From positions 1 to 64,000 of the forward strand of contig QPMI01000603.1 of the NCBI GenBank assembly GCA_004431415.1: a stretch of DNA of 64,000 nucleotides. Reading direction: 5' to 3'. This document shows, one piece after another, positions 22,305-49,260 of this stretch. Position 1 is the first letter of the stretch; each line of letters opens with the position of its first letter. The DNA comes from Cyanophora paradoxa CCMP329. Its lineage: Eukaryota > Plantae > Glaucophyta. The notes beneath the pieces were generated by a model. The model was not told where the DNA came from. It did not search any database and saw only the letters and a list, made by a program, of their open reading frames with translations. A program made the translations under genes and the position numbers.

Positions 22305-22456
22305 TTCTCTTTAATAGTAGATACGAAAATAATTTTTCCTCAATACAACCTATCTACTTTTTCCTTAAGTCATTTTTTGTTGCAAACACCAGTTCCTGTC
22401 TGTAAACTTTTATAGCTGCCTCAGTAGCATACTGAGACCGCTTTTTCTCAATTATT

Positions 22457-22702
22457 TTATAGACCTGGGGGTCCATTGCTACTATCAGTAGGCAAATAAT
22501 ATTTAATCGGTCTCCCTCTTGGTCTCTGCTCCTCTTTTTGGGCTTTTCTGCGATAATAGGATGCCAAGGCTTGCTGCTTTTTATACTCTCTATAGGCTGG
22601 GTCCTCTCTATATCGTTTCTGCATTGCTAGAATGTGTCTAATAGAACCCTCAGTAACAGGTTCATCACTGGTAAACTCGATTAAACTAATAGTGTCCTCC
22701 AT
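22457..22702 (-). CDS. Small basic protein with AT-hook-like RGRP
   Basis: YREDPAYREYKKQQALASYY..RPRGRPIKY. Confidence 0.6.
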   Translation of the reverse strand: MEDTISLIEFTSDEPVTEGSIRHILAMQKRYREDPAYREYKKQQALASYYRRKAQKEEQRPRGRPIKYYLPTDSSNGPPGL

Positions 22703-23018
22703 TTATATTCCCAGAGAAAACGTTTTCTGCTGGCAGAGAACTTCTCCTTGGATACTCCTGCTGCTCATATGTATACTCTGTGGGGTCTGCTGGCATTGAC
22801 TCCACAGAAACTGTTGATCTCCTTCTCTCTCTTGCTTCTGAGGCATTATCCTCATTATCTGACATCTCAAACTCCACTCTTGTCTCACAGCATCCACTGT
22901 GGCAATTGCTCACCACATGCAGACTGAACATCTCGAAAAACTTTCGTATTATATCCATGTCTCTAATAAAACAGATAAAATTAAAGCCAAACTCGTCTTT
23001 TATATACTGTTGGGGCAA
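22686..23018 (-). CDS. Hypothetical viral protein (start may be ~22959)
   Basis: ORF fills the gap in a co-oriented gene run; no motif recognised. Confidence 0.35.
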   Translation of the reverse strand: MPQQYIKDEFGFNFICFIRDMDIIRKFFEMFSLHVVSNCHSGCCETRVEFEMSDNEDNASEARERRRSTVSVESMPADPTEYTYEQQEYPRRSSLPAENVFSGNINGGHY

Positions 23019-24126: not shown

Positions 24127-24190
24127 TGTTGTAGATCTTCCTAAATAAAGACAGATAAAAATAATGCAGGGTGACTGAATATGGTCAGAT

Positions 24191-25561: not shown

Positions 25562-25614
25562 TATATTCTCTTTTATTATACTGCAACATAAAAAATCTAC
25601 CAATGATCCTTAAT

Positions 25615-26625
25615 TTATGCGAAGTTTGTAATAACTGGATAGGAAGGGTGAAGCTGTGACATTCTCATCTTAAAGTATTCATAAACTGGGTCTCCTGCTG
25701 GCTCATCACCATAGCGAATTTCAAAGGTCAGATGAACAGGTTGACCCTCAAAATCAATTGGTTCATTTACAGCATTAACAATATCAACCGAGAAAGTGGA
25801 TAATCCAACCTTTTTGTTATAGTATTTATAAAGTGGATGAGCCTCTGTTGAATTGTAAACAACATGCTCACCATAATCTTTGTCAGGAACCACTATTTTA
25901 TGGAAGTAACCAGTCAGAAGACCATCCCCACATTGAACCAGATCACCCAGCTCCTTTACTCTCACAAACAAAACACTGTCCCTGGTCTTCTCAGGCTCAA
26001 AAGAAGATATAATGCCATTCACTCGACCATCAGTAAAGATTCCATCAGTGAGAGCATCATAGACCTGTGATTGGATTGGGGAGTTACCATATCTTCCAGG
26101 ATCAAGACCCAGCAGTCTAGCTGAACTCAACAGCTTTTGGATTGTTTGTTGGCTTGGGTTCACAGCTACTGAGAAAGCCAAGTAAAATGGTACTGCTGAG
26201 TGGAATATAATTCGTTTCAGTGATTCATCCCATTTGCAGCGAATGGATGGTTGGGGATTTCTGCCTTCGAATTTAGAGTTAATTACATTCACCAGCTGCT
26301 GGTGGCTTTGGATGGGGGTGTTTCGACTTATAATGAATTGTTTCCATTGTTCATAGTCAGCAGCTGGGCGAACTGTTGGAATTCCTGAGCTTCCAGCTCC
26401 AGGAGTTTGTTCAGAATAATAAATGCTAAATGCATTGTCAACTGTGACATCTCCTGCTTTGGTTTCACCACTCACCATAGGGATACTGTTATAAAATTCG
26501 GCTGAGACCAGTCTCACAGCCCTCACATTCTCATAACTACTGGGGAGTCTAGCCACAAAGCTTGATGTGGGACCATCACCAGAGATTGTATTAAATGAGC
26601 TAACCTCGATGTAATCCACAGGCAT
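25615..26625 (-). CDS. Minor capsid (penton-like) protein 1
   Basis: N-terminal YIEVSS..SSFVARLP..NVRAVRLVSAEFYNS and C-terminal IVN..PIDFEG.PVHLTFEI pattern of PLV/virophage-type single jelly-roll proteins. Confidence 0.7.
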   Translation of the reverse strand: MPVDYIEVSSFNTISGDGPTSSFVARLPSSYENVRAVRLVSAEFYNSIPMVSGETKAGDVTVDNAFSIYYSEQTPGAGSSGIPTVRPAADYEQWKQFIISRNTPIQSHQQLVNVINSKFEGRNPQPSIRCKWDESLKRIIFHSAVPFYLAFSVAVNPSQQTIQKLLSSARLLGLDPGRYGNSPIQSQVYDALTDGIFTDGRVNGIISSFEPEKTRDSVLFVRVKELGDLVQCGDGLLTGYFHKIVVPDKDYGEHVVYNSTEAHPLYKYYNKKVGLSTFSVDIVNAVNEPIDFEGQPVHLTFEIRYGDEPAGDPVYEYFKMRMSQLHPSYPVITNFA

Positions 26626-26654
26626 TCTTCTTTTATCTATATTTATATATTAAA

Positions 26655-27585
26655 ATGAATCGACTTGTTAATATTGATAGCAGGGATAGAAGCCAAGGAC
26701 AAAATGAAAACTCTTACAGGGTCACCCTCACAACTCCAGTAGAGAGACCAAGGGAATGCAGGGTTCTATATGCAGAGATTCCAAACAGTATCTATAACAG
26801 TGTGGGGACTGATCATTTAACAGTTGATTTTAACTACCAAGATGGTTCATATAACCAAGTGATCACACAACAAGTGTATCCCCTTCCCAGTGGCTACATC
26901 AATCAGGGTCATTTTGGGGTCACACACCCTTATAATTATGGGCTGAACTATTCAAGCTTCCAAACTATTGCAGGCAAAACAGTAGCTTTTGAGTTCAAGA
27001 TATTCTACAACCCAACAACCTATAAAGTGGAGTTTTACAGTAACCATGAGTTTCGTTTTATTGCAAGCAACCAGAGAATAGGAAAGCTTTTGGGTGTAAG
27101 TTCTACTGAATACACTAATGGGTATTATAGCACTCCTCCTGTTGGTGGATCTCCATATCGACCTGAGAACCTTTTAAAGTATGATGGCAAACCTATTACA
27201 CCTGATCACCCAGCATGGGGAATCACCTTCTCAGGACCCAGACTCTCCTCTAAGCCCTTGCAATATTATTTTGACAGCAGGAAGATGTCTGATATGAATG
27301 CTGAGCAGTATCTGTACATGCATATTAAAGAGCTGTCCCCTTTGCCAGCAGACACAATATAATTCCAAAATCGCAACCACAAAACCAGGGAGCTATCCTT
27401 AGATTGCAATTGAGTAAAGATATAGGGGCTATGTTTACCATAGTGGTGAACATGCAGAATTTATTCAAATCAATGACAGAAACCTGGTGATAAGGGAACT
27501 CACTGTGGAGTTTAAAGATTACTTTGGTGAACTGATTGATATGAATGGAATCGATAATTCTTTTCAGTTGGAGTTTATCGAATAA
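26655..27585 (+). CDS. Minor capsid (penton-like) protein 2, frameshifted near 27350-27480
   Basis: LVNIDSRDR..YRVTL..AEIPNS; C-terminus LTVEFKDYFGELIDMNGIDNSFQLEFIE* continues in another frame to 27585. Confidence 0.72.
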
Positions 27586-29109
27586 AGGCACCTGTAAAGT
27601 CAACTCTCATTGTGGGAGCATTCACATACACAAGGGGATAAATGCGAATATATCTTATTCTCAGAGAATAACCTATGTAAAAAGCATCCTTGATGCTGAG
27701 AGGGAACCCACTCAATAGAGCCACATCACCAGAGTTGTGAGCATTGTTAATGTTCTCACAGACATATATTTTGTTTTGCCCATCTGATCGAATAAAAGAC
27801 CAGTTGATCCCATCAGTGGATGTTGCCACATTGAAAGTCTTAATAAAAGCATTGGTGTCCCCTGATCCATAGGCAATCACAGAGGAGAGTTCAAAAGTAT
27901 ATGGAAAAGCAACTTGAAGGTATTCAGTGGGGTTTTCCCATATCTGTTCAGGAGCATAGGCTCCAGCTTCCCAGCCAAATGCTGAAGGTCTAGCCATGAA
28001 AGGCTCTTTACCTGTCACAGAGGATGAGGCAGTAAAGGCATCATCTGCAAGCTGATACCAATTGGCATCCAAAGGAGGTGATGTAGTGAGAGTGGATGAA
28101 ATGTAAGCCTTTGAAGGGTTCTTCAGTTCATAGTTTGCTACTAGTAGGCTGCAAAGCTTATTAATCATATCATTGTTTGCTGCTATGTAGGTTTCAGTGA
28201 ATGCAAGCATGTCTGGGATTTTAGAAGTGTCATCCAGGGAGCTTACTATATGATTTGGAAGTGGGACTGATAGCCTATAGTATCTCCCATAATCCTGATC
28301 ATAGTTGTAGGGTAACAACTCCTCCATCTTATCAAGGGCAGAAAGCTCACTTGCAGCCATGAGCATGTTAATCAATGGGCTTCCATCTGTTGAGGCAATC
28401 CATGAGAGAATGCCCCAGCTGTTCACAGTCTCATAAGCATAACCCACATAATCAGACTCTAAATGTGGGTCCACCTCTCCACAAGAGATGCTTATTACTA
28501 TAATATCATCATCATCACTGTAAATCTTCTTTGCATGGCTGTAACCACACACACTGGGATTATTGTTTCCCGAAATGGCACCATCAATGAGACAGACAAA
28601 TACTCCCCGATTGAAATCAACAATGCTTACAGGAGAGAAATATGTAGGAGCAGCAGAGGTAGCCCTAGCAGCAATCTTACAAGGCAGAAAGCTGTAATTG
28701 TTATCATTTGTGATAAATATTGGTTTCATATTCTGAGTATCAAAGGATGTGATCACAATGTCCTTTAGGGAATCCTGTATTAGTGATTCCCCAGTAACTG
28801 AATTGATTGCAGTCTCCAAGGGTCCCACATCATACTTTGTGTTAAATAGGGCATTTTCAATGATATTTCGAGGATTTGCGAAAATCAAAGGCAGTTGAGT
28901 TAGGTAAATATTGTGTAAATCGTTTGCTGTCAGTTTAGGTTCACCTGGTCTATCAGGATGCCTTATATTCAAACCTATTGCAATGATCCCACCAGTGGAA
29001 GTTCCACTCACAAGATCCACAAGATCGATTATTCTCCTGCCAGTTCGATTTTCGATTTCTTTTAGCAGCCTGGTTATGATAATGCCCCTTGCACCCCCGC
29101 CAGAAAGAC
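27575..29109 (-). pseudogene. Patatin-like phospholipase fused to a C-terminal F5/8 type C (discoidin) domain; separated from its first codons by the nested PLV
   Basis: GGGARG, GTSTG and DGA patatin motifs; EYLQV..F..STDG.NW..IRYIRIYP..MRVDFTG discoidin pattern; native start lies at 41144. Confidence 0.88.
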
Positions 29110-29445
29110 AAAAAATGGTGTTTTGGGCGTTCTGCCCCACGACACCATTTATCGTCTCATATTTCACAAAATCTCAAAAATCCTTACCATAAGCCTATCT
29201 ATCGATTAATTTCACACGATATCCACACGATACACCACGATATCCGCACGATATCCACACGATAAACAGCAATACCACACGATATCCAAACGATAAACCA
29301 CGATATCCACACGATTACACACGATATCTCTCGATTGTCGTACTTTAATCGAAAAATATCCCACAAAAACTAATTACCATAAACCAAAATTTCAATTACC
29401 TGTATTCACCACATCGAATTCGTTTTAAACATATAAAGATTTATC
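29110..29445 (+). repeat. Left TIR of inner PLV, with terminal hairpin and tandem CACGATA(T/A) repeats
   Basis: Reverse complement of 40781-41116; AAATGGTGT..ACACCATTT hairpin; ~10 ACGAT-core repeats at 29214-29328. Confidence 0.95.
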
Positions 29446-29500
29446 GACAGACAAAAAATGACGTCCTTAAATTTAAAAAACGTTTTACTGAGTATCCACA

Positions 29501-29929
29501 ATGACAACCGAAACGTTTTCTGAATGCTATTTCGGGAATAATTACGATGATGAATCTTTCGGAATAATCAATAGTGTCTATAAAGGACTAAAAGAGTATA
29601 AAGGTGTTACACAGGAAATGATACATAAATGTTTCTTGTCTAACAGACTCGATGAATTAATCCATAAGAAAAACAAATATTTTTCTTGTCTTTCATACCA
29701 GAGGTTCAAAGCGAAGGGATTAGTTATTGGAAAAACACATGAAAAAGAAGTATCCGATAAATTCGAAATACTCGATGATAATCATTGTGCATACTGTAAA
29801 CATAATAACTTTGGTAAAAATATGTTACGCTCACCAGATTGTTGTGTTTGCTATAAAGTAATATGCAAGAACTGTGCTTATTTAGCCAAAGATGGTGTTT
29901 ATGAAGAAGTTCACACAAACTGTCGCTAA
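29501..29929 (+). CDS. Hypothetical protein with C-terminal Cys-rich Zn-finger-like region
   Basis: CAYC..CCVC..CKNC..HTNC; preceded by CAAAAAATGACG. Confidence 0.65.
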   Translation: MTTETFSECYFGNNYDDESFGIINSVYKGLKEYKGVTQEMIHKCFLSNRLDELIHKKNKYFSCLSYQRFKAKGLVIGKTHEKEVSDKFEILDDNHCAYCKHNNFGKNMLRSPDCCVCYKVICKNCAYLAKDGVYEEVHTNCR

Positions 29930-29978
29930 ACCGAGCAAAAAATGACGCCCCGCAAAAACAAAACCACAACCTGTAACC

Positions 29979-30266
29979 ATGGCGATTACAAAAGAATATT
30001 TCGCGAATCATTTGGGATTTTACGTTAATCCTGATTTATCGGAAGAAGAACGCATAAAAGCAATAACAGATAAGGTGTTTACCGATACAACCGGGTGTAA
30101 TCTTTCGAAGGTTTCAAGTTCAGCAAGAAAAGCAATTAGAAAAGCAAACGAAACCTACATACAACCATCGTATAATGAAACTATCAATTTAGCAGAAGCC
30201 CGACATGATCGTAATTTAATGAAATTGAAGTTAAGAAAGAAGCTTGAAGCTCGCAAGAACCAGTAA
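29979..30266 (+). CDS. Hypothetical protein
   Basis: ATG ORF preceded by the CAAAAAATGACG motif. Confidence 0.55.
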   Translation: MAITKEYFANHLGFYVNPDLSEEERIKAITDKVFTDTTGCNLSKVSSSARKAIRKANETYIQPSYNETINLAEARHDRNLMKLKLRKKLEARKNQ

Positions 30267-30319
30267 AAAACACGCATTAAAAATTGATTACCTTTTTTAG
30301 AACTTAACAAATCTTACAA

Positions 30320-30799
30320 ATGGAACAAATCATTTATTTCGGGAATACCACACAAGAACCACCAAACTATTATGGTTGTTATCTGTTGCTCGTAACACCA
30401 TTTAACATTGAAAGAGCGGGATATAGAAACATTTTTGAGTTCAGAGATTGTGGAGCAAAATATGATGAAGATATTAAGTATTGGTATGTTACATATAAAA
30501 ATCATCGACTTCTTAAAAGGTTCCCAGTTGTTGACCCAGTAGAAGTTGACCCTGATTTTCATAATCACATAATGACCCTGAAGTTTCGTAAATATTTCGT
30601 TGGTGATATCAAGGTAAGATTACCAGAGTTCGAAGAAAAACGTATATTTACCCAGGCATCATTGCGTAAATACCTTAAAAAACAAGGCTCTTTATTTGAT
30701 AAGCGACACCGTTTATGGTATGTCACCGATCCTGAAAGTGAGATATGCAAGATCTTTAAAATGTTTGATTGTGAACATCTAACATCTCTACGTCGTTAA
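30320..30799 (+). CDS. Protein with two degenerate DUF5710-like repeats
   Basis: GAKYDEDIKYWYV and GSLFDKRHRLWYV resemble the GARWD..W repeats of 40422-40760. Confidence 0.55.
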   Translation: MEQIIYFGNTTQEPPNYYGCYLLLVTPFNIERAGYRNIFEFRDCGAKYDEDIKYWYVTYKNHRLLKRFPVVDPVEVDPDFHNHIMTLKFRKYFVGDIKVRLPEFEEKRIFTQASLRKYLKKQGSLFDKRHRLWYVTDPESEICKIFKMFDCEHLTSLRR

Positions 30800-31548
30800 A
30801 CCGTAATAGTCGTGGGTTCATTACTAATTCTTATTGATTCTCTCTTTTTTATCGCTCGTCTCTTTACAAACTTGCGAAACGCTTTCATGTCATCATCTGT
30901 TATAATTGCACGGTCTGTGTATACTTTGATGTCATAACCTTGTAACCCAGTTATAACGGTCTGATAATTGTAACCCCAAAGTCTATGTAGTTCTTTATAA
31001 GTCTTTTTATCTAATCCACCGTTATATTCATCGAATGCGCAGTTAAACTCTTTCTCATTTCCTAAGATGTTAAAGAATACCACAAATTCCACATTACGAC
31101 GAATGGTAGTAGAAATAGAACATATACGTTGGACATTGAAAATAACGGTTATACCATAATGTCTTCCGCTCGTTACCAGTTTGGATAACACAGCCGAATT
31201 ATGCATATCCAAATTAGATCCAATCATGTCATCTAAAATTATTACCAAACTATTACGCTTCTCATTGTTTTCGATTCGTTTCTTTTGCATACTAATTAGT
31301 TTCACTACCACATTATCATCCCATTCCTCATAGATGTTACCAGGATGAGTTATATCTTTGAATTGACCGGTAAACGCAGTGGAACTAAATACTACAATCT
31401 GATCGATCTTATCGCGCAGTTCATAAAGTAGATATTTACAATACGTTGTCTTACCAGAATTGGAGCGCCCGGCAAGCAAAAAACGCGAAGGTAATTTAGC
31501 AGTTTTAACCGGGTCGAATTCGGGAATATCATCTAAATCTATATCCAT
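30796..31548 (-). CDS. Packaging ATPase of inner PLV
   Basis: GRSNSGKT, IILDD, SGRHYGI..Q..IRRN. Confidence 0.92.
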   Translation of the reverse strand: MDIDLDDIPEFDPVKTAKLPSRFLLAGRSNSGKTTYCKYLLYELRDKIDQIVVFSSTAFTGQFKDITHPGNIYEEWDDNVVVKLISMQKKRIENNEKRNSLVIILDDMIGSNLDMHNSAVLSKLVTSGRHYGITVIFNVQRICSISTTIRRNVEFVVFFNILGNEKEFNCAFDEYNGGLDKKTYKELHRLWGYNYQTVITGLQGYDIKVYTDRAIITDDDMKAFRKFVKRRAIKKRESIRISNEPTTITV

Positions 31549-31646
31549 TACTGTGTGTCCGTTACAGTAATAAGATAAAAAACAAAATCACACGCTAACC
31601 TATACGCGATTCGCAGGCTTCCTACTTTAAAGAAAGAAAAAGAACT

Positions 31647-32873
31647 TTAAAAGTTGGAAACTTTCAGTGTCGAAATGTTATAGCCATTGAGAACCATGAC
31701 ATTGTGACGGAGCGCGTAAATATCCACCTGAACCGGCGCCTCATCGGTGCAACCAGAAACTACAAGATCCATGTAAGAACTTGAAGAATTGAAGAAGTCT
31801 TGATAACCCATGACCGAATTATGGAGAGAATCCTTACCGCTCTTGCTTAGGACAACACCATAAACACATCCATCCTCAAAACCAAGATCAGAATTGCCCA
31901 CAGTGCATCCCTTGTAGTGAGACGGGATATGGTTTACAGCAGACAGGAAACCGCCAATAGGTTTGTTTGAGATTTCAAGCGATCGGTTGTTATGGAAAAT
32001 TTGGAACTGTTCAATTTTCACATTGGAATAGTAACCAGAAAGAGTCGAATGTGTGTATTTATCAAGCTCATTGGTTTCACGAACAGTCATAAGAATTGAA
32101 TGAACCAGACCGGAAACACTCGCAAGTGTAACCTCGACATTTTGCCCATCATCCGCCGCTTTAAGCGCTCGGGTCTTCTTGTGGATCACTTCCGTAATCG
32201 GGATGCGAATACCTCCTTGTTCATTCGCCGTCTTTAAGAGGTTCTCAGCTTCCGCAGAAGCAATATTAACGAATTGACAGATTAGCGCGCAATCACCCAT
32301 AGTGACATTTCCACCAGCAGGAACCAAAACTACTGAATTCTCGCGAAAATCTACCTCGATAGTGGGCATGTCCGCAAGAACGCAAAGGGGGAAATATGCA
32401 TCATCCCAGAATTGGGCAGGAATCTTAATGATATATTCCGTAGATTCGTCAGTGCTAAGGCGACTAATTTCACGGAAATATCCAAGAGAAGCGCGCATAG
32501 TAGCCATGGTTGCTGTGTCATTGTCTACCAGAGCATTAACAGTGATCCAATCACCAGGGATGATATACTTAAACCCACCATGGACAAAACGAACCTCTTT
32601 AATGTAAGAAGCGCCACCATTGGGAAGAGTGCAAGCAACACCACCACCGGTAGTAACCTTAAAGTAAAGCGAAACGCCACTTAGTAGTTGCTTGCGTGGT
32701 AGATCAAAATAAGCGGTCGTTTTGAAACCGAAAGTGTTACCACGTGGGCGAACCTGTTCAAGGAACGGCTTATACTTGGGGTTGGTTCCGATTTGAAGAC
32801 CGGGAGATAGATAAATTTGATCCGATCCGGGAGTAACGAGGAGTTCCTTTAAAGTTGTCCCAGCAAGCGACAT
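31647..32873 (-). CDS. Major capsid protein of inner PLV
   Basis: 408 aa next to the ATPase and mCP; YFDLPRKQLLSGVSLYF, YFPLCVL; homologous to 24191-25561. Confidence 0.8.
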   Translation of the reverse strand: MSLAGTTLKELLVTPGSDQIYLSPGLQIGTNPKYKPFLEQVRPRGNTFGFKTTAYFDLPRKQLLSGVSLYFKVTTGGGVACTLPNGGASYIKEVRFVHGGFKYIIPGDWITVNALVDNDTATMATMRASLGYFREISRLSTDESTEYIIKIPAQFWDDAYFPLCVLADMPTIEVDFRENSVVLVPAGGNVTMGDCALICQFVNIASAEAENLLKTANEQGGIRIPITEVIHKKTRALKAADDGQNVEVTLASVSGLVHSILMTVRETNELDKYTHSTLSGYYSNVKIEQFQIFHNNRSLEISNKPIGGFLSAVNHIPSHYKGCTVGNSDLGFEDGCVYGVVLSKSGKDSLHNSVMGYQDFFNSSSSYMDLVVSGCTDEAPVQVDIYALRHNVMVLNGYNISTLKVSNF

Positions 32874-32925
32874 GTCTTATGTTTAAAATACGAAAAGAAA
32901 TTTTTAAATTACATTATTAAACAGA

Positions 32926-33831
32926 ATGACGCGTTACTATCTTAATATTGATTCCCGGGATCGGGATGATGGAACCCCTACAAACTATTCTTATAAACTT
33001 CCCCATCCAATCCAAAATGTTAAAGCATGCCGTGTTACCAATTTCGAAATGTTTAATAACATTTACAATCTAAGCGAAAATGGAGCGCTTGTAACATCCA
33101 CACTCGATGGACAAGGAGTAACCAAAACGAAAAACAACGTGATTTCGAAAGGGACTTACACAGCGGATAGTTTGGTGAATTATCTAAATGCTCTTCTGAT
33201 ATCTCAGGTCTACGGTGCAGCAGGGACTACATACACCCGTCATTTCAATGTGTCTTATGATCCAATAACAATGAAACTAAGGATTATTGGTGAAGTAGCA
33301 TTTACCATACGTTTCGGTAGCATGATTTTAGCCAATTTCCTCGGTTTCCCGGATCCATCACTAAATGGCTCGGCGGGTGTAGGTTATCCATCTACTCCTC
33401 TCGATTCACCGCAGCAAGTAGGTGCTTATACTTATAATCACTATCTCGACAGTGTCATACCGCTCGACCTTTTGTTTAATTCTTACATCCTTCTACATGT
33501 CGATCCACTCAAAGGTAATTACGTAAGCAAGAATACCAGCGACGATAAAGCGTTAGCTAAAATTGAAATTGACCAGACGGTAGGTAGTCTCCTAAAATAC
33601 GATTCTACCAATAACTCTATGATCATCCATGAGCAAAACGGATTAGTGGAAGTTGAGACGCTTAAAGTGCGTTTGACGTATTGGAATGGTAACGAAACGG
33701 ACATTACCACGGATTGGTCAATGACTCTCGAACTGATCACCGAAGATGAAAAGGATCTTACAAAAGCGGCATTGAAAAACGTTATAAGGGATTTGGAAAA
33801 TGTCTATTTACCGTTTGGTCGTAATATGTAA
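32926..33831 (+). CDS. Minor capsid (penton-like) protein of inner PLV
   Basis: YLNIDSRDR..NYSYKLPHPIQNV..FNN; C-terminal LKVRLTYWNG..DWSMTLEL. Confidence 0.78.
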   Translation: MTRYYLNIDSRDRDDGTPTNYSYKLPHPIQNVKACRVTNFEMFNNIYNLSENGALVTSTLDGQGVTKTKNNVISKGTYTADSLVNYLNALLISQVYGAAGTTYTRHFNVSYDPITMKLRIIGEVAFTIRFGSMILANFLGFPDPSLNGSAGVGYPSTPLDSPQQVGAYTYNHYLDSVIPLDLLFNSYILLHVDPLKGNYVSKNTSDDKALAKIEIDQTVGSLLKYDSTNNSMIIHEQNGLVEVETLKVRLTYWNGNETDITTDWSMTLELITEDEKDLTKAALKNVIRDLENVYLPFGRNM

Positions 33832-33863
33832 TTTTGTATAATAAATTTGTTTCTTTAATTCAA

Positions 33864-34610
33864 ATGGCTCGTAAGACACAACCGAAGAATTTCTTAGCGA
33901 AACCCGTCGAACAAGCGGAACCGGAACGGAAGCATTACAAGAAATCGAAAGGAACCGCAGCATACGGAACCGCTGATATCGAAAAGAATATTAATAATAC
34001 GATTAATTCCAGTGCTGTGGCGCCAGTAGACGACATTAACGATGGTAACGCCTTAGTTGAGCAAGTGCCGCTAAACCGTATGCCGGGTGCAAAGCGTGGA
34101 ATTAAGAAAGGACAATTTAAGAGCGCGACAATCGATAAGGTCGATAAAAAGTCGACTCTTCTTAAACTCCTCGATGGTGGCGAGCGTCTGTATTCCACAT
34201 ATTCGGAAAAAGACCACCGTAACCGCTACTTTATCAGAGCAACCACCGGTGGACTAAAAACGATCACATACAAACACGCTAAAAGTCTCATTGATGGAAT
34301 CGCCGATGAGACACAAAAAGAGAAGAAGATAACGGAGCAACCGATAACCAAAGAGAAGGTAGACAAGAAACCCGATGTTACGTTTGATGTGCTACCCGAT
34401 CCTATTAAGGTTACCAAAGAATCGCCAGCGGAATTAATCGCTAAGACGATCGATTACCAAGAATCCAATAAAACGGATTTGCCGGTGTTAAATAAGTCAA
34501 TCTTGCGGGTTGCTACATCACAATCTGACCCGCTTAACTCCATTCCTAATGCGGCGCCAATGCTTTCCGGATTCGCTAAATTGGGTCTCCGTCCAGGCTA
34601 TCGCCGTTAA
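33864..34610 (+). CDS. Lysine-rich hypothetical protein (possible core/virion protein)
   Basis: ATG at 33864 (MARKTQPK); follows the mCP; basic composition. Confidence 0.6.
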   Translation: MARKTQPKNFLAKPVEQAEPERKHYKKSKGTAAYGTADIEKNINNTINSSAVAPVDDINDGNALVEQVPLNRMPGAKRGIKKGQFKSATIDKVDKKSTLLKLLDGGERLYSTYSEKDHRNRYFIRATTGGLKTITYKHAKSLIDGIADETQKEKKITEQPITKEKVDKKPDVTFDVLPDPIKVTKESPAELIAKTIDYQESNKTDLPVLNKSILRVATSQSDPLNSIPNAAPMLSGFAKLGLRPGYRR

Positions 34611-34943
34611 GGATCATTCTTACGTTAAAAATTTCTTTTCAAAGAATAGCGTTAAACATCCATCTCCGAATTTTAGCGCTCACGTTTACTTATTTTTATA
34701 AGTGGCGTTGTAGAGAAGTTGTGATATCCATGTATCACGCTTTTTAATCACCTGTTCTACGGGGTTCAATCGTAGAATCGAGGAAGCGAAGACTTTCGGC
34801 TTATTTTTCCGGCATCTTCTTATTATCGATGCGCAAAAAATGACGGTGGGCAAAAAATGACGATGTTCTAAGAAAACGTATAACCGACAAGAAAAAGGAC
34901 TTAAAGATTTCTTGCTATATATTAGAAGAGGAACAGCAAGAGA

Positions 34944-35198
34944 ATGCCGGTCAGCGAATCACAAAAGCGTGCTATTGATCGTTTCCGCAAGTCCGAGAAA
35001 GGACAGGAGTATTTGAAAAAGTATAATGTAAGATTGGCTAAGCAAATGAAAGACCTTTACAATTCCGATGAGACTTATAGGGCTATGAGAATTATAGATA
35101 GTTCCCAGAGACATTATGTAGCTAATGCTATTTGCTTTGTAAAGTATCTGTATGGAGTTCCGCGAACCAATCGTGGGCGTCCATCAATTCATTGTTAA
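34944..35198 (+). CDS. Small basic protein with C-terminal RGRP
   Basis: MPVSESQKRAIDRF..YNSDETYR..NRGRPS; two CAAAAAATGACG motifs upstream. Confidence 0.6.
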   Translation: MPVSESQKRAIDRFRKSEKGQEYLKKYNVRLAKQMKDLYNSDETYRAMRIIDSSQRHYVANAICFVKYLYGVPRTNRGRPSIHC

Positions 35199-35398
35199 TC
35201 GTTTTTCTCGGCGCGCTTGCTCTGAGAAGACAAATAAGCGCAAACGCGCTATACCCTTTGAGTTATTTTTAGAACCATTTGTACGATGGTTCACCCTTTT
35301 GTTATTTTTATAAAATGCCCGTCGCCAAAAAATGACGTCATGCTGAAAAAATGATTTAAAGAAATATTTTGTAGGATATATAATAAGAACGCCCAAGG

Positions 35399-38300
35399 AT
35401 GCCTCGCGCTGTTAGCTATCGGAACGCAAAGACAAGAAAGACGATCGATGAGAGAAGTAACTATGGTTATGCGAATGGGTTTCTGAGTGAAGAACAGTAT
35501 GATGCTTTCCGCTACTTTGCCTTTCAGAAAAGACCTCGTGGTAGTGGATTGGAGGATATCTTGTATTCGATTAATGATATCATCGCTCGCGGTGAAGCCC
35601 GACAGAATACCGAAGATGAAATTAACCGTTTCGGGAATATTGAGGCAATCGAAGAGGGGAGTAAGAAGACGAAAGCGGAGCGGATCGCTGAGAAGCGAAA
35701 CAAGAGAGCGGAGAGGAAACAGAGGAAGAAGGAGAAGCGAGCAGCAAGAACCACTAAGAATGTTGTGAAGCAGAAGGAAAAGGAACGATTGGCGAAGGAT
35801 CGTAAATATCGCAATGAGACCGAAATTATGCAAGCCATGAATAATCTTGTGGTTGAGATTACATGGAAAAATCAGAGAACTAATAAGATCGCATCGGCTC
35901 ATGAATTCGTCGACAGAATAATAGGATGGGATCGGTTCTATGAGCATCACCGAAATGCTGTAAGAGAAAGACGGGGTATTAAATTCCATCTGACCGTGAC
36001 CGCAATTTATAAGAAACCGCTTCTACTCAATGGAAGACCTACGGGTATGTTTGGATATGATACGTTCACAGGAATCCCCACGCGATACTTCCTTATCCTT
36101 AATGAGCGTGAAGTAGTTAATACTGTTGATACATCAATAGACGAACTACAAGAAATTCTCGAATCACACCCCAGTGGTAAGTTGGACAATATCATAAAGT
36201 TCCAGCTACAAATTCTAACTTATCAGCCAATCGCCGGTAGCTCTTACATTCCGCTTCCGAAGGAGATCGAAGCGAAAAAAGCGGTGATCAATCCACAGAA
36301 CGACGACCAGAAGTGTTTTGCATGGGCAGTTACTATTGGACTACATCACCATGAATTATCGCATAAACACCGCTACGATGTGAAGCGATACAGGAAGTAT
36401 GAGAAAGAGTTTAATTGGGATAGTTTCCAGTTTCCGTTGAAGAATAACCCGCGCGAATACGAAAGGGCTTCTAAGATGATCGGGCGACCAATTAATGTAT
36501 ACTCTCTCGAAACCGATAAGGAAACGAAAACATTACGGGTTGTTCCAATTCATGTGTGTATGGATCCAAACAGACAACATGAGACTATTGACATTCTTGT
36601 TTGGGGTGATGAGAAAACAGACACGATGCATTACGGTTACATTTCCAGTCTGTCGCGTCTCATTCCCAGTTCACACCACGGGACTACTCACTATTGTAAG
36701 GCATGTTTAAGAGGATTTACCAGTGAGAGAATCTTAGAAAATCACATTAAATACAACAAGTGCTATGATCGCCCAAATGCGACAGTTGATACCATGCCTG
36801 ATCCTGATTCGGTTATAAGTTGGCGTCCACAGGAACACATAGATAAGACGGTTAGACATCCAATGTTCATTGTTGGTGATTTCGAATGTATCTTACAAAA
36901 GGTGCAAGAGAAACGAGGCGATAACACAGATGTTTACCAGAAACACATACCAAGCGGATACAAGATTATGGTAATTCACAAGGGGGAGATCATTAAGCAG
37001 GTCTTGTATCGGAAGCAAAACCCAGAAAATGATGATGAGGTTACGGAGCATTTCATGCAAACATTGCGTTTCATGGAGTCTGACCTTCTCGACAGGTTGC
37101 GAACTGTTGAGCCAATGGTAATGACCTCGGAAGATAAGGACGATTTCAGCGGCTCTTTCTCGTGCTACATCTGTAATGAGAATTTCACAGCAGCCAATAA
37201 AAAGGTTCGCGATCATGACCACACAACCGGTGAATATCTCGGGGCGGCTTGCAATCTTTGCAATCTAAGACGTCGTATTAAGCCAAAGATTCCGGTAATT
37301 TTCCACAATCTGAAAGGTTACGATGGTCATTACATTCTGAAAGCTATGAGAGATCCGACAAATACCAGTGGTGAAATTCGTTGCATTGCGCAGAATTTCG
37401 AAAAGTTTGTAACCTTTGATGTTGGATCTTACAAGTTCTTGGATTCTCTGAATTTCATGGCTTCCAGTCTCGACAGTCTCGTTAAGAATCTTGGTAAGGA
37501 TAATTTCAAGTTCACGAATGAGTGGTGTGATTCCATGAAATACACCAAACAACAGCGTGAATTACTGATGAAAAAAGGACATTTCCCTTACGATTACCTC
37601 GACAGTTTCGAGAAACTCAATGAGACGCAATTACCACCAAAAGATGCGTTTTATTCGAAACTTAACGACACAGCAATAAGCGACAATGATTATGAGCATT
37701 GTGTGAAGGTTTGGGATGCTTTCAAGTGTAAGACACTCGGAGACTATCACGATATCTACCTTGCTACCGATGTATCCCTACTTGCGGACGTATTCGATAC
37801 ATTCCGCAATGTTTGCTATGAGCAATATGAAATTGACCCGATCCATTTCATCTCGGCTCCTCACCTGTCGTGGTTTGCAATGTTGAAGTATACCGGAGTT
37901 GAGATAGAACAACTCTATGACCCGGATATGTATAGGTTCTTTGAGATGGGAATTCGTGGTGGGACATCTATGATTTCCACACGATATGGAGAAGCGAATA
38001 ACCCATACATTGCGTCTTACGATCCATCGAAGCCGACGAAGTATATCATACCTTGGGATGCAAATAATCTTTATGGAAAGGCGATGAGTTTCAAGCTTCC
38101 CTACCGCTACTTTGAGTGGATTGGCGACATAGATAATTTCGATTACATGGGGTTCGATTCAGAAGGAGAACAAGGCGCGACATTGGAAGTGGACTTAGAA
38201 TATCCCGCTCATCTACACGATCTACATAACGATCTTCCGTTAGCTCCTGAGTCGCTTGTAGTTACACGTGAAATGCTTTCAGCCACACAGTTGGAGATGA

Positions 38301-39367
38301 TCGGTGAGGAGAAGTTACCAGAAATTCGCAAGTTGGTGCCGAATCTGATGGACAAAAAGAACTATATCCTCCACATCAAGAACTTGCAGTATTACGTGAA
38401 GAAGGGCATGAAAGTAACGAAAGTGCATCGTGGTGTTATTTACGATCAGTCCGAATGGTTGAAACCTTACATAGACCTTAACACAAAACTGAGGACACAA
38501 GCGCGAAACGATTTCGAAAAAGATTTCTACAAACTCATGAATAACTCAGTTTTCGGCAAGACCATGGAGAATGTGAGGAAGCGCAGTAACATTAAGTTGT
38601 GCTGTGATCCAAAGAAGCAACTGAAACACAACGGTAACCCATTGTTGAAGACAATGAAGATCATTAATGAGAATCTCACAGCCATTGAGTTTTACAAGGG
38701 TTCCATTACGTTGGATAAGCCGATTTTCGTTGGTCAAGCCATCTTGGATATTTCGAAACTGATTATGTATGAGTTCCACTACGATTACATCATGGAGAAG
38801 TATGGTAAGGATCGTGCGAGACTTCTGATGACTGACACCGATTCGCTATATTACGTGATAGAAACCGAAGATATCTATAAGGATATGAATAAAGACGCGT
38901 ATTGGTTTGATCAGTCAGATTACAGCAAATCACACATGTGTTACAACCCGACAAATAAGAAGGTTCCGGGGTTGTTCAAGGATGACAGCAGCGATTACAT
39001 TGTTACACGGTTTGCGGGATACAAGCCTAAGGCATATTCGTATGAGAAGGAGTTGAATGTTAAGGCTCTTTGTCTCGAAAAAGACTCGGAGAAGAAAACT
39101 GTTAAAAAGTTGAAGGGAGTTCAGAGGTCAGTAGTGCAGAATAGGTTAGAGTTCCAGCAATTCTACAACACTGTCATGGATCCTATGCAGGAGCAAGAGC
39201 AAGTAACAGTTAGAGGTTTCCGATCAAAGAACCACGAAGTAACAACGCAGGAAATGAAGAAACGGGCATTTAATGCGCTCGATACTAAGAGGTATCTTTG
39301 TGAGGATCTCTACCATACTCTTGCGATTGGGCATTATCGTGCGGTTAGCGCAAACAAAACCAAGTAG
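35399..39367 (+). CDS. polB: Protein-primed family B DNA polymerase of inner PLV, intact
   Basis: 1322 aa; ExoI GDFEC, ExoII HNLKGYD, ExoIII YLATD, GIRGG, DANNLYG, KLMNNSVFGK, TDTDS, KAY; EndoVII-like RDHDHTTG. Confidence 0.96.
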   Translation: MPRAVSYRNAKTRKTIDERSNYGYANGFLSEEQYDAFRYFAFQKRPRGSGLEDILYSINDIIARGEARQNTEDEINRFGNIEAIEEGSKKTKAERIAEKRNKRAERKQRKKEKRAARTTKNVVKQKEKERLAKDRKYRNETEIMQAMNNLVVEITWKNQRTNKIASAHEFVDRIIGWDRFYEHHRNAVRERRGIKFHLTVTAIYKKPLLLNGRPTGMFGYDTFTGIPTRYFLILNEREVVNTVDTSIDELQEILESHPSGKLDNIIKFQLQILTYQPIAGSSYIPLPKEIEAKKAVINPQNDDQKCFAWAVTIGLHHHELSHKHRYDVKRYRKYEKEFNWDSFQFPLKNNPREYERASKMIGRPINVYSLETDKETKTLRVVPIHVCMDPNRQHETIDILVWGDEKTDTMHYGYISSLSRLIPSSHHGTTHYCKACLRGFTSERILENHIKYNKCYDRPNATVDTMPDPDSVISWRPQEHIDKTVRHPMFIVGDFECILQKVQEKRGDNTDVYQKHIPSGYKIMVIHKGEIIKQVLYRKQNPENDDEVTEHFMQTLRFMESDLLDRLRTVEPMVMTSEDKDDFSGSFSCYICNENFTAANKKVRDHDHTTGEYLGAACNLCNLRRRIKPKIPVIFHNLKGYDGHYILKAMRDPTNTSGEIRCIAQNFEKFVTFDVGSYKFLDSLNFMASSLDSLVKNLGKDNFKFTNEWCDSMKYTKQQRELLMKKGHFPYDYLDSFEKLNETQLPPKDAFYSKLNDTAISDNDYEHCVKVWDAFKCKTLGDYHDIYLATDVSLLADVFDTFRNVCYEQYEIDPIHFISAPHLSWFAMLKYTGVEIEQLYDPDMYRFFEMGIRGGTSMISTRYGEANNPYIASYDPSKPTKYIIPWDANNLYGKAMSFKLPYRYFEWIGDIDNFDYMGFDSEGEQGATLEVDLEYPAHLHDLHNDLPLAPESLVVTREMLSATQLEMIGEEKLPEIRKLVPNLMDKKNYILHIKNLQYYVKKGMKVTKVHRGVIYDQSEWLKPYIDLNTKLRTQARNDFEKDFYKLMNNSVFGKTMENVRKRSNIKLCCDPKKQLKHNGNPLLKTMKIINENLTAIEFYKGSITLDKPIFVGQAILDISKLIMYEFHYDYIMEKYGKDRARLLMTDTDSLYYVIETEDIYKDMNKDAYWFDQSDYSKSHMCYNPTNKKVPGLFKDDSSDYIVTRFAGYKPKAYSYEKELNVKALCLEKDSEKKTVKKLKGVQRSVVQNRLEFQQFYNTVMDPMQEQEQVTVRGFRSKNHEVTTQEMKKRAFNALDTKRYLCEDLYHTLAIGHYRAVSANKTK

Positions 39368-39375
39368 ATATATAA

Positions 39376-40435
39376 ATGGATCAGGTGCTTAGTTATAGCA
39401 AATATCGACAGAAACTAATTAATGATGGTGTTAAATTTGATGAGGAAGAACTACGAAAACGTTTTAAAAATCGTGAAATAGACCAGATCTTTAAGAAACC
39501 CAAAAGCAGAAGACATTTCTTAGAATCGTTGCCCTCCTAATTCGTTCCAGGTTGACGTGATATTTTTCAAGAACTACAAAACAGGAAATAATGGAATCGA
39601 CAGGATGATGGGATTTATTGACATATTAAGTCGTAAAGCGTTCGTGTATCCATTCAAAATGGGAGACTCAAAAGTAGAGATTCTTAACAGGTTCAAAGTT
39701 GAAGCAGGTAAGGTGAATGCGATCGCAGGAGATAATGAGTTTTCAGCTGAAATGTATCGTAAATGGTGTGAGGAGAACAATGTAACACTTTATACAGACG
39801 TTGCAAAGAATGACCACATAACAGTAGGCGACAAATTGGGGATTATCGATAGGTTCACAAGGACATTCAAGCAATATTTAAGAAAGGCGATTACATCAAG
39901 TGGAAACCCAAAGTGGACAGAATACTATAAAGACGTTTTAACAACTTACAATAATTCACCGCATGTTTCTTTAAAGAATGATTCACCCAATGCAGTTTAT
40001 GGTAATAACGAAAAGGAGTCGTTCATATATTTCAGGGACGCTGTTCATAATAAGAGAATTAAAGATGGGATGCCCACTTTTAAAGAGGGTGATTATGTTC
40101 GTGCTGTGACAGAAAAGAAGGTATTCGATAAAGAAGGTGCAAGATACACGAAGCAGGTTTACAAGGTAGCAGGTAAAGTAGGTAATCGATTTAGTTTATT
40201 GGAAGAGAACGAAGGAGAGACACCCAAAGAAGTGCGTAGAAACTTTAAGATGAATGAGTTACAAAAGGTGGATAAGGACGCAATTGTTAAGATTCCCACA
40301 CAAAAACGTGTAGAGAGAGTTAGAAAAACAACGAAAGTAAATAGATTAGTAGCAAAAGAAGGGATTAAACCAAATAGAAAGGTTGTAGTTCGAAAGAAGT
40401 ATAATTTAAGGAGCGGTGCCGCTACTCGTCGATAA
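39376..40435 (+). CDS. rve integrase of inner PLV (frameshift near 39520-39540; main ORF 39557-40435)
   Basis: FQVDVIF, IAGDNEF, GIIDRFTRT (third acidic residue is D), YNNSPH; upstream ATG at 39376. Confidence 0.85.
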
Positions 40436-40760
40436 ATTTAATTGGTTTGTATTTTTCGAAAACCTCGCTATGGTGGATACCACGCATAAACCACGTTCCA
40501 TTTTCATTATCCCATCGTGCGCCGTATTGTTTTGCTTCTTCTTTTTCGCTGTAAGGAACCGTAATATATACAATTTGATCGATTCCTTTTACTTCTTCTT
40601 TTGAAAGTTGTTTAAATTTTGTGAGTAATTCACTGTCTTTTTTGGTTGTATACCAAAGGTGAGTATCCGGATCCCATCGACCACCCATTTGTTTAACTTC
40701 TTTACGATCCTCGTAACGTGAGACAATATAATAACGGGTTGTCTTTGGTTTTGATTCCAT
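40422..40760 (-). CDS. Tandem DUF5710-like domain protein
   Basis: YEDRKEVKQMGGRWD..W and VPYSEKEEAKQYGARWD..W. Confidence 0.75.
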   Translation of the reverse strand: MESKPKTTRYYIVSRYEDRKEVKQMGGRWDPDTHLWYTTKKDSELLTKFKQLSKEEVKGIDQIVYITVPYSEKEEAKQYGARWDNENGTWFMRGIHHSEVFEKYKPIKFIDE

Positions 40761-40780
40761 GTTTTTTTACAAAAAGTTAA

Positions 40781-41116
40781 GATAAATCTTTATATGTTTA
40801 AAACGAATTCGATGTGGTGAATACAGGTAATTGAAATTTTGGTTTATGGTAATTAGTTTTTGTGGGATATTTTTCGATTAAAGTACGACAATCGAGAGAT
40901 ATCGTGTGTAATCGTGTGGATATCGTGGTTTATCGTTTGGATATCGTGTGGTATTGCTGTTTATCGTGTGGATATCGTGCGGATATCGTGGTGTATCGTG
41001 TGGATATCGTGTGAAATTAATCGATAGATAGGCTTATGGTAAGGATTTTTGAGATTTTGTGAAATATGAGACGATAAATGGTGTCGTGGGGCAGAACGCC
41101 CAAAACACCATTTTTT
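40781..41116 (-). repeat. Right TIR of inner PLV
   Basis: Reverse complement of 29110-29445. Confidence 0.95.
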
Positions 41117-41144
41117 AAAGACTTAAAACGACCTTGAGAGGCAT
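41117..41144 (-). pseudogene. Orphaned 5' end of the patatin gene (MPLKVVLSL)
   Basis: ATG CCT CTC AAG GTC GTT TTA AGT CTT T joins across the TSD to CT GGC GGG GGT GCA AGG GGC, giving MPLKVVLSLSGGGARG. Confidence 0.9.
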
Positions 41145-41187
41145 CTTTTACTTATCAGGAATTTTATAAATCCATATAGTAAAAGCC

Positions 41188-44100
41188 ATGAGCTTCAATT
41201 ACCCACCAAATCTAGAAACCATTCAAGATGATAATGCAAGCAGCACCAAGCATGTGAACTTTGATAATATTAAAGTAAAGGGTTCAGTTTCAATTGACCA
41301 CAGCTCTGATAATTCATCAAAGACTCAATCAAGGGAGCATGCTTTATCTGTGAATCAAACCGATCCAGATAAAGAGGATGTCAGTGTAGCCTTTAGTTTG
41401 GGTAATGTGAAAGCAAACCAAGTGGCAGAGATCAAAGCAACAAGAAGGAGACCTAGGAAACTAAAAACCAGTGGCACTCACCCAGATATACCTTCCAGGT
41501 TCGATAGTGGTCGATTGATTTTCAATGTTCAAGATGAGCAGGGCAAACAGAACACAGCTTTGCGAATTTACAATGAGGGCAGCACTGCAAAAGCTGAGGT
41601 CCCCAAGTATTGCAAGTGGGTCCCATTGCCAACACAAATCAGGTCTCCTACACAAATGATGTATACCCAAGGATATTACATATGACTTTGCGAGGAATGA
41701 GCCTTTTGGGTTTTTTACTCCAAAAGATGTCCATCAAAAAAAGCCATCAATTACAATCAACAGTAGCCCCAGTCAACCAGTAGCAATCCATTTACATCCT
41801 GATTTAGTCGAAATGGATAGGCACCTTTTGCCTTTGTATAGCAATGTGAAAGACCTTGGAATTAGAACCAGGCAATGGCGAAATATCCATGGCAGCAATG
41901 TGTATGCAAATGGGGAGAAACTTGTGAGTGAGAAAACTCTAAGGGAAATAATTGAGCATTATGGTCCCAATGGACCAACAGTTCCATTCCCTATTCCATT
42001 TCCAAATGGACCTCCCGATTTAACACCAAAGAAACAGCCTGGAAGAGAATACACAGCAACTGAAGATGTAGCCTTTGGGCAGCATATTGTTAGTTGGGAG
42101 CAAGTTCGCAATAAACCTATAATTGAACCCAGAAAGCAAATAGATGAGCAGTATTTACCTCCTGAAGTCGATATATTAGAGCTTGATGAATATCAATTCG
42201 TTCCAGATGAGGAAGAGTATTTACCAGATGGTTTCGACCCACAAGAATATGAGTATGATCAGTTTGACCCCAATGAGGAGGAGATACTCCAGATGGTTTT
42301 GACCCACAAGAATATGAGTATGAACAGAACTATGAACCTGATGAGGAGTATTTACCAGATGGTCATGATCCACCAGCTGTTGACTATGAGCAACCTTATG
42401 AACCCATGAGGAATTGTTACCAGATGGATTTCGACCTGAGATCTGGGAGTTCTTCCCTGATTATGAACAAATTAATAATAAACCTGCAAAGTATCCCCCA
42501 GAGGATCACAATCATGATTGGGATGAGATCTTAGGCAAACCTCAAAAGTATCCACCAGAGGATCACAGGCATGACTGGGGTGATATCGATGGGATTCCAA
42601 CTGAGTTCCCACCAAGCAAACATGAACATACTTGGGATGAGATTAATGACCAACCAGAATTCGCAAAGGTAGAGCCTCTTGATAACTTGGGGGTTTCTCT
42701 TTATCAGACTTGTAATGTCCCAGAAAGAATCTTTTTGAATGAACACTATGTACATGTGAATGGGACACTTGCGAATTCAGCTATGAGAGGACCACTTCAT
42801 ATTAGGACATTACCAGGCTCTTATAATCCACCACCTGAACCAGGAGCAACCATACCAAATATCTTTGTGTCAAGCTACATGGAGGCTGACATTCCCACAG
42901 ATACATTCAGAGTCCCAACAGACCCAGCAACCTACCAAAATTACAACTCTGCTATACAGGTTCATGTAGCAGATGTAAGCAGTTTAGATGGCTCAAGACC
43001 AATGATAGTATTCAGCAGAGATAAATATTCCTACATTCCCATAGTGGGAACTGCAAATGATAATTATGGGAGAGCAGAGCTTGCATGGATTAAAACCAAC
43101 TATGGTGGGTTCTGGAATCCAATCAGAGGATGGCTGCAAAAAACATACACAATGAAAATATTTCGAGAGTGGTCACAGAGGATTATTTAGAAGAGCAAGG
43201 ATATATTGATGAAGGTGAACTCACAAATATTCTTTCTCTTTTTGTGATCAAAAATGACACAAACCTTACAGTCACAAGTAACATTTACACCAGTAACCTT
43301 TATACAAGTAATATTTTCACAAGTAACCTATGGGCAAGTAATATTTACGGAAGTAATCTAGAAGTTGACTATTTGACTGTGAATATTGAAGCGAATCTAC
43401 CAAATCATCCTACATCCAATGTAGTTTTAGGTTGGATCGATAACCACACCCACACAAAAGATGAAATAACAGATTTTGCACATGAGCATTTATGGGAGCA
43501 TATAACAAATCCACCATTAACCTTCCCACCCAGTCCCCATGAGCATTTATGGGAACATATCACGAATCCACCATTAACCTTTCCACCTGATCCACACAGT
43601 CATGATTATTCCCAGATCACCAACTGCAATCACAGACACCCTTGGAGTGAAATCGATCAACAACCAGTGTTTGCACAGTTGAATGCAATCGGAAATGTTT
43701 TTAATGGAGTCACACTTTACCAATCGAGTAATACACCTGAAAGATTGTATTTGAATAATCATTATGTTAGTCTCAATGGGACTTTTACAGGTCAAACAGG
43801 CACTCCAATGGAGGGAACTCTTGCAGTAAGATTACCCAGGGATCCAATCGTAAATGGAGTTTATGATGGTGATTTTAATGTAGGAGTAAATGATACTTTC
43901 CCAGTATCTATGTTACGAATTATCACCCAGGTGAAACAGGACAAGTAGCCGATTTTTCAGCAGCTATTCAAATAAACGTTACAGATCAAAGCGCATATGA
44001 TGGAGCAAGACCTAAAATTGTGTTCACAAGGAGAAAGTTGTAAACTACCTTCCTGTTGTGGGACAACCCACAGATGATCATGGGAAATGTGAGATTGCAT

Positions 44101-47189: not shown

Positions 47190-47192
47190 TAA

Positions 47193-47501: not shown

Positions 47502-47540
47502 TTGCAGTTTATTTTTCTTTCCTTCTTAGTAAAAGAAGCA

Positions 47541-48385: not shown

Positions 48386-48407
48386 AAGATATATCCTTTA
48401 ATGTAAA

Positions 48408-49257: not shown

Positions 49258-49260
49258 AGT

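Follow-up and report, generated by a model that had tools for sequence, protein, structure and literature searches.

A 12-kb Polinton-type element integrated in a gene of a larger Polinton-like virus in the genome of Cyanophora paradoxa

Nested viruses and glaucophyte Polinton-like elements

Polinton-like viruses (PLVs) have been framed as satellites of giant viruses (PMC11296320), and their nesting in other viral elements has been described in Halocafeteria seosinensis, with five PLVs and nine virophages (bioRxiv 10.64898/2026.07.28.741278). Here we describe a nest of this kind in the glaucophyte alga Cyanophora paradoxa CCMP329, where a compact Polinton-type element (the inner element) lies inside a gene of a larger PLV (the outer element). 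The window analyzed is the whole stretch of 64,000 nucleotides at positions 1 to 64,000 of contig QPMI01000603.1 (assembly GCA_004431415.1). The Halocafeteria nests resemble the present one in having terminal inverted repeats (TIRs), target site duplications (TSDs) and terminal palindromes within the TIRs but differ in host and capsid types. Moreover, their palindromes go mainly with replicases other than the protein-primed DNA polymerase of family B (pPolB), whereas here both elements code for a pPolB and have terminal hairpins. The Ngaro retrotransposons of Cafeteria EMALE virophages are likewise mobile elements inside an endogenous virus, sometimes within its genes, although Ngaro is a capsid-less retrotransposon with a measured site preference, unlike the capsid-encoding inner element (PMC8547959). 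Neither dependence of one PLV on another nor this nest was the subject of any paper found in our literature searches, which had subscription papers outside their scope.

C. paradoxa is already known to be rich in such elements. A survey of major capsid proteins (MCPs) lists 366 matches in this species, in clusters of 272 and 94 that fall outside the named groups (PMC10120064, Tables S2 and S4), and by the same tables they would make up approximately 7.3% of 99.9 Mb, a figure obtained by arithmetic on unlabelled columns. Where viral elements are this numerous, chance alone should produce several nested copies. For both MCPs, the list has a capsid with a nearly identical N-terminus: compared by eye, the MCP in row 24 of Table S2 has a run of 46 residues identical to the inner MCP, and that in row 107 a run of 33 residues identical to the outer MCP; row 106 is the protein P0001, which is 59% identical to the outer MCP. 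In the passages covered, here and in the two papers cited next, we met with no map of an element, no size of 12 kb and no nest, and the word "nested" occurs 0 times in the main text of PMC10120064. Patatin-discoidin fusions in glaucophyte PLVs, morphogenetic modules without a protease and a PLV size range of 14-40 kb have been described (PMC12220804), as have adintovirus-like contigs with PolB and integrase in C. paradoxa (PMC8502044). Both capsid types are thus known from a glaucophyte alga and PLV nesting is known from elsewhere; to this known kind the inner element adds a member of unusually small size.

Structure of the nest

The inner element proper occupies positions 29110-41116 (12,007 bp), as delimited by its TIR ends and a TSD. 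Its left TIR (29110..29445, plus strand, 336 bp) and right TIR (40781..41116, minus strand) are 100% complementary, being exact reverse complements across all 336 bp, and both are bordered by the 6-bp TSD AAAGAC (29104..29109 and 41117..41122, plus strand). When lengths of k = 4-11 were tried, the flank duplication was present at k = 6 only. The left TSD corresponds to codons 8-10 of the outer patatin-discoidin gene, which is on the minus strand and is split by the insertion into a 5' end with the start codon and first codons (41123..41144) and a remainder (27575..29109). In this copy, the inner element is nested in the patatin-discoidin gene and breaks it. An earlier note on this DNA, made from the sequence by a model, had reported the nest with its own TIRs and 6-bp TSD, and these stand; the extent that it gave (29104..41144) does not, as 29104 belongs to the left TSD and 41144 to the patatin ATG.

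Excision with one TSD had also been said to restore the interrupted gene. When a script removed the inner element together with one TSD, this indeed left an open 518-codon open reading frame (ORF) from 41144 to 27575 on the minus strand, with the start quoted in the note, a GGGARG glycine loop at residue 11 and the catalytic Ser motif GTSTG at residue 43. Both gene pieces have Pfam patatin matches, and an F5/8 discoidin domain is also present; the next in-frame patatin ATG (28729) falls beyond the glycine loop and the catalytic Ser. The empty site itself, a joint that jumps 12,013 bases and has six shared letters, was present in contigs of two of three public DNA runs (X2, depth 4871; X3, depth 1999) and in run X20, and in the form of loose ends in X1, the remaining DNA run, and in X14, so the intact patatin allele is observed and not merely computed. 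Words of the region 25500-35400 are contained, at a fraction of 0.57-0.62, in 19 public runs from one organism and at least 17 studies, one of which may have supplied the window itself.

The filled junctions are read from the window sequence. No contig in any of the four DNA runs bridged the left one, although rare variants tend to be missing from contigs and assembly readily loses a join that exists once between deep repeats, and the right one was not among the loose ends of the public-run contigs. At 29099-29105, the empty-site contigs by themselves account for the whole depth, and the dominant public TIR contig has other letters than the window at positions 29180, 29196 and 29197. On one reading of the unbridged junction, the insertion may be absent from the samples of the public runs.

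Gene content and classification of the inner element

The inner element codes for 11 ORFs that cover 10,453 of its 12,007 bp. Next to the left TIR, on the plus strand, are a 142-aa Cys-rich ORF (29501..29929) and a 95-aa ORF (29979..30266), neither with an assigned family and with the word AAAAAATGA 47 and 41 nt upstream, respectively, followed by a 159-aa DUF5710 ORF (30320..30799). The morphogenetic genes come next: an A32-type packaging ATPase of 250 aa (30796..31548, minus strand; PF04665, E 3.4e-14), a double-jelly-roll MCP of 408 aa (31647..32873, minus strand) and a probable minor capsid (penton) protein, mCP, of 301 aa (32926..33831, plus strand), which is so called from its position and its 29% identity over 145 aa to the outer ORF at 26655. 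A 248-aa Lys-rich ORF (33864..34610, plus strand) had no Pfam, PHROG, NCBIfam or Atlas assignment and may be a cryptic fiber or core protein. The right part has an 84-aa basic ORF (34944..35198, plus strand) with two AAAAAATGA words upstream, the pPolB of 1322 aa (35399..39367, plus strand; PF03175, E 5.5e-12), a probable rve/DDE-type integrase (39376..40435, plus strand) frameshifted near 39524-39537, and a 112-aa ORF with two DUF5710 domains (40422..40760, minus strand). This confirms the set of PolB, integrase, ATPase, MCP and mCP that had been read earlier, with the integrase frameshifted and probably of the rve type, and the mCP probable. It was equally right that no helicase is recognizable inside; the only Walker A motif in the six frames is that of the ATPase.

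The pPolB keeps the vOTU Cys/His residues, ExoI-III and polymerase motifs A-C intact when aligned with Polinton PolBs, and a TP domain is placed from position. It is 39-45% identical to the best 120 of 3,113 matches, which include named cnidarian and mollusc Polinton/adintovirus PolBs and a coral adintovirus PolB. The MCP is far more isolated, with just 4 relatives at 25-28% identity among 1.84 billion protein representatives, no homologs by a word-index search and none in viral or metagenome contig collections. Its model, built from 6 sequences (pLDDT 63.5, pTM 0.70), is a double jelly roll with the PBCV-1 capsid as the best PDB match (E 1.2e-17, TM 0.63), and its Atlas score to Capsid_N clusters is 0.98. 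The integrase matches the outer rve integrase (E 1.6e-19) and, weakly, an IS481 DDE family (E 2e-4), with no Pfam match; its third catalytic position is Asp, giving a DDD-like triad, where the outer integrase has the catalytic Glu. Sequence searches of the PDB with the inner MCP profile and the inner integrase gave no match, and the viral contig collection gave no relatives with context for the inner PolB, the protein P0004 or the outer MCP, and none for the TIR tip pattern.

As to the claim that the inner element has no protease, no adenain/Ulp1 capsid-maturation protease matched any of the 11 inner ORFs, small family-less ORFs being left among them, so that part of it held; it had overlooked the vOTU Cys/His domain inside the inner pPolB. 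A missing protease as a contrast between the two elements was rejected, as both pPolBs keep the vOTU Cys/His residues and neither element shows a recognizable maturation protease.

The inner element is like Polintons/Mavericks and Alpha adintoviruses in the clade and domains of its pPolB, its ATPase, TIRs and 6-bp TSD, the lack of a helicase and, probably, an rve-type integrase. It is unlike Polintons and Alpha adintoviruses in having no adenain/Ulp1 protease gene and in its capsid, which Table S4 does not place in the Maverick-Polinton column; the near relatives of its MCP, matched by eye, fall in unnamed "iterative HMM" clusters and not in the Maverick-Polinton-Adintovirus columns (PMC10120064). 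It would work like a Polinton, but as it departs from Polintons in maturation protease and capsid clade, we file it as a PLV in the broad sense, just under the descriptive range of 14-40 kb (PMC12220804).

Contigs over the capsid module (30671-34672) are several times deeper than those over the inner pPolB, suggesting that there are relatives with these capsid genes but other replication arms. Low-depth contigs in all three DNA runs skip both ends of the MCP gene (31593-31818 and 32690-32880), and in run X1 the region of the first DUF5710 gene (30267-30796) is skipped, a deeper contig lacking 528 bp there; these are deletion variants of the inner family. The interior of the inner element has no coverage in run X20, and no RNA run was listed among those that contain the words of the region; neither result says anything on expression.

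The outer element and the two replication kits

The outer Polinton-like element (12161..51018) measures 26,845 bp without the insert, with TIRs of approximately 810 bp that are 98-100% complementary in two blocks and a TSD of CGCGTC at 12155-12160 and 51019-51024. On the minus strand, it codes for an rve integrase (13880..15265), a pPolB in three frames (15269..18512), an SF3 helicase with PriCT_2 and DUF5906 domains, also in three frames (19168..21759), and an MCP of 456 aa (24191..25561). A fiber with an S74 chaperone is on the plus strand (44145..47189), and the element further encodes a GIY-YIG protein, an ATPase, two penton-like genes, other fibers and an S-adenosylmethionine decarboxylase (49557-49955; PF02675, E 1.8e-11). 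The outer pPolB keeps the vOTU and polymerase motifs, while its exonuclease is eroded and partly deleted: it lacks the ExoI Asp, ExoII and approximately 85 residues that include ExoIII. The earlier description of the outer virus as having the helicase and fiber together with an exonuclease-dead PolB is therefore sound. One-base gaps at 27336, 27424, 41600, 41665, 42402 and 43899 are absent from deeper contigs, so some of the outer frameshifts are likely assembly errors or specific to this copy.

The replication genes had been seen as complementary, and the two viruses as perhaps trading replication functions. The TP-vOTU-EXO-PALM architecture is that of the Polinton polymerase, and such polymerases are described as strand displacing and mostly helicase free; loss of the exonuclease accompanies gain of a helicase within one genome, with mavirus as an example (PMC11161782). 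DUF5906 is typical of the mavirus-related pMVRE group 1 (PMC13215967), and replicases are freely exchanged among capsid types (bioRxiv 10.64898/2026.10.13.758929). Judged by its motifs, the inner replication kit is complete, with the full Polinton set. The outer one combines an exonuclease-remnant pPolB with a separate SF3 helicase, the stand-alone kit of mavirus, so the outer element needs no partner. It is like mavirus and pMVRE group 1 in these two features, the rve integrase and GIY-YIG and unlike them in its PLV-type capsid, related to the inner capsid, a likeness judged by module content. By comparison with these systems, the two kits appear to be alternatives, each a known complete design and not one half of a pair, and we rejected the idea of complementary polymerases.

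Inner and outer proteins are only distantly related, with identities of 24% for MCP, 29% for ATPase, 29% for mCP, 24% for integrase and 26-41% by segment for PolB, and their DNA similarity is limited to one 89-bp match. Their composition differs as well. The observed/expected CpG ratio is 1.25 in the inner element and 0.41 in the outer one (12161-29109 and 41123-51018), against 1.1 in the host flanks; within the outer element, it is 0.10-0.15 in the integrase and PolB bins and 1.4 in the left TIR region. In the same direction, C at codon position 3 precedes G in 149/760 cases in the inner element and in 81/1228 in the outer one. Because the CpG regimes differ, the two lineages have different histories, and an inner lineage without the CpG loss of the outer one fits a recent arrival or another lifestyle.

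Probable landing in an abundant target

We consider it probable that a compact and likely autonomous Polinton-type virus has landed here in an abundant, AT-rich target. The inner element would have integrated, likely recently and likely by means of an integrase of its own family, into one copy of an abundant larger PLV, and it likely replicates without the outer virus. The landing place would follow from target size and a probable bias for AT-rich DNA, with the outer family offering a large target in a GC-rich genome. In the predicted cycle, the inner element excises; its self-processing pPolB would copy it from the TIR ends by protein-primed strand displacement; the A32 ATPase would package the DNA into the double-jelly-roll capsid; and reintegration would generate a new 6-bp duplication. 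The death of the patatin-discoidin gene in this one outer copy would be a by-product, and a third party, either a giant virus or the host, would be the reader of the promoter word discussed below. The ends of the inner element, its TSD, the empty site, the genes present and the state of their motifs are observed, and the autonomy, the recency, the AT bias and the third-party reader are what we infer from them.

The outer family is clearly the larger target, being far commoner by contig depth: summed depth is approximately 6,000-24,000 in outer bins and approximately 50-2,000 in inner bins, and empty-site contigs are 60-79x deeper than the contig that exactly matches this inner variant, although depth suggests and does not measure copy number. 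As the outer family is so much more abundant, chance insertions into it are expected. The patatin (lipase) gene is disrupted in this copy, as had been noted, but the intact allele is 60-79x deeper, and we rejected lipase knockout as a strategy because it affects one copy of a deep family.

Several observations weigh against this explanation. No fiber was recognized among the inner ORFs in Pfam, PHROG, NCBIfam and Atlas comparisons, in line with what had been said before, and the integrase of this copy, with its frameshift and the Asp at the usual Glu position, may be dead. But for one mismatch, the hairpin apex is the same 11 nt in both TIRs (GGCGTTCYGCC), a word that occurs only at the four ends. 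Finally, the flanks of the inner family are low in GC. At the inner TIR tip, four other flanks were found in the DNA runs (two long ones shared by all four runs, a third confined to X1 and a fourth common to X2 and X14); their GC is 53% and 46%, with 24/30 A/T in a two-contig consensus, all below the host flanks of the window, where GC is 0.70 on the left and 0.63 on the right of a 39-kb island of approximately 0.39. Such low values have P <= 0.0005 for host-like pairs and approximately 0.02 for virus-like pairs, subject to a short-read bias against GC-rich flanks, possibly non-independent ends and a host reference of 25 kb of the window. They may reflect real targeting of viral DNA instead of a mild bias; a bias of inner insertions toward AT-rich or viral DNA is in any case likely.

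The same flanks bear on the alternative that the inner family prefers endogenous viruses as landing sites, using them as safe harbors or shuttles while its own genes replicate it. This copy does sit in a PLV, the four other flanks are low in GC, and there is a precedent in the type 1 Ngaros, 91% of which lie in EMALEs (PMC8547959). However, the two of these flanks that were individually resolved matched nothing in the window when up to 3 mismatches were allowed, and no joint from the inner end to elsewhere in the 8 kb of outer DNA compared was listed in three DNA runs; in addition, GC-rich flanks may be under-assembled, two of the flanks may be one insertion, and the GC reference for the host is small. 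We regard this preference as possible but unlikely. The specific proposal that the small PLV targets the large one finds no support here, with 0/2 resolved other flanks matching the outer element; preference for AT-rich DNA, which the earlier note had offered as its own alternative, fits the low-GC flanks better than targeting of the outer family does.

A stronger form would make the inner element a specialist hyperparasite of endogenous PLVs, with an integrase that aims at viral DNA, an apex and promoter word that co-activate the two elements, and use of the fiber or end-processing of the resident virus. We consider such a specialist quite improbable.

Terminal and promoter-like motifs

The shared terminal and promoter-like motifs that had been reported are real but short. 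The inner left TIR has a predicted terminal hairpin at 29113-29150, with the apex GGCGTTCTGCC at 29126, and the outer TIR one of 73 nt (12161-12233) with the apex GGCGTTCCGCC (z of -4.0 and -12.3 for the two predictions). An apex in common arose in 9/20,000 random draws if prespecified and in 86/2,000 for any 11-mer. The two TIRs share 37 8-mers versus 18.3 in simulations, while the terminal 15 nt, the expected integrase/terminal protein site, differ between the elements.

The word AAAAAATGA, a motif chosen post hoc, is located 20-200 nt upstream of a start codon at 6/6 inner and 3/4 outer sites, and the shorter word AAAAATGA, also post hoc, is upstream of start codons at 3/9 sites. The exact mimivirus word AAAATTGA showed no upstream enrichment (1/3 inner and 0/3 outer sites). 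AAAAAATGA matches WWWWWTGW, the early motif of mesomimiviruses, which is carried by the PLV Gezel-14T (bioRxiv 10.1101/2022.07.28.501842), and it resembles the chlorovirus AATGACA (PMC5294985). Neither element has a recognizable RNA polymerase, so a common outside reader of the promoter is the simplest view.

These motifs are among the arguments for the inner element being a satellite of the outer one, from which it would borrow helicase and fiber and to which it may lend proofreading, with the apex and promoter word acting in trans. The absence of a recognized helicase or fiber inside and the excess of shared 8-mers would agree with such a pair, but both replication kits are known complete designs, and penton-like proteins with 29% identity and capsids with 24% would be a poor fit for a shared fiber. 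Different terminal 15 nt and CpG regimes also speak against it, and the fit of the promoter word to WWWWWTGW is explained by a third party common to both. We consider this dependence very unlikely, and the satellite/hyperparasite pair put forward at first is not supported for an element with its own polymerase, integrase and capsid, a complete kit and core proteins 24-41% identical to those of its supposed partner.

Integrity of the copy and of the assembly

As a further alternative, the copy found here may be defective, with an intact sibling of the inner family having moved it in trans, and its position would then be uninformative on the outer virus. The integrase frameshift fits this, as do the deletion variants in public contigs, among them those that cut into the MCP gene at either end. 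Against it, the TIRs are 100% identical, the frames of the 4-kb pPolB, the MCP, the mCP and the ATPase are open, and the window likely carries assembly indels, since deeper contigs lack the one-base gaps of the outer genes; the alternative appears highly improbable. Misassembly of two repeat families into a chimera, for which the several one-base frameshifts of the window could speak, we consider next to negligible: both joins would not then fall exactly at TIR ends, the 6-bp duplication is the length made by this integrase class, and the empty site is identical in independent contigs, all in agreement with the true integration that had been claimed.

Other features of the window

Approximately 5 kb from the outer virus lies a host gene (107-6722), rich in GC and in introns, that codes for a phytochrome PHY domain (E 1.4e-11). 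In the opposite host flank, there is a tyrosine-recombinase-like ORF (53070-53744; PF00589, E 6e-6), perhaps of a Crypton- or DIRS-like element, and a long inverted-repeat (foldback) structure at 54858-63955, whose arms enclose ten tandem units of 346-354 bp (57530-60969).

Biological implications

This locus is a clean, resolved case of a PLV inside a PLV with an observed empty allele, and at only 12 kb, under the usual PLV range, the inner element is a Polinton-type genome that looks intact and encodes a capsid. One host holds both replication designs, a proofreading polymerase without a helicase and an exonuclease-dead polymerase with one, and the contrast in CpG is a cheap marker for the time that each lineage has spent in host chromatin. 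If the inner family does target viral DNA, this would be a new layer of parasitism, testable in a culturable alga, and if the inner element were a hyperparasite, it would be the first virus to parasitize PLVs instead of giant viruses.

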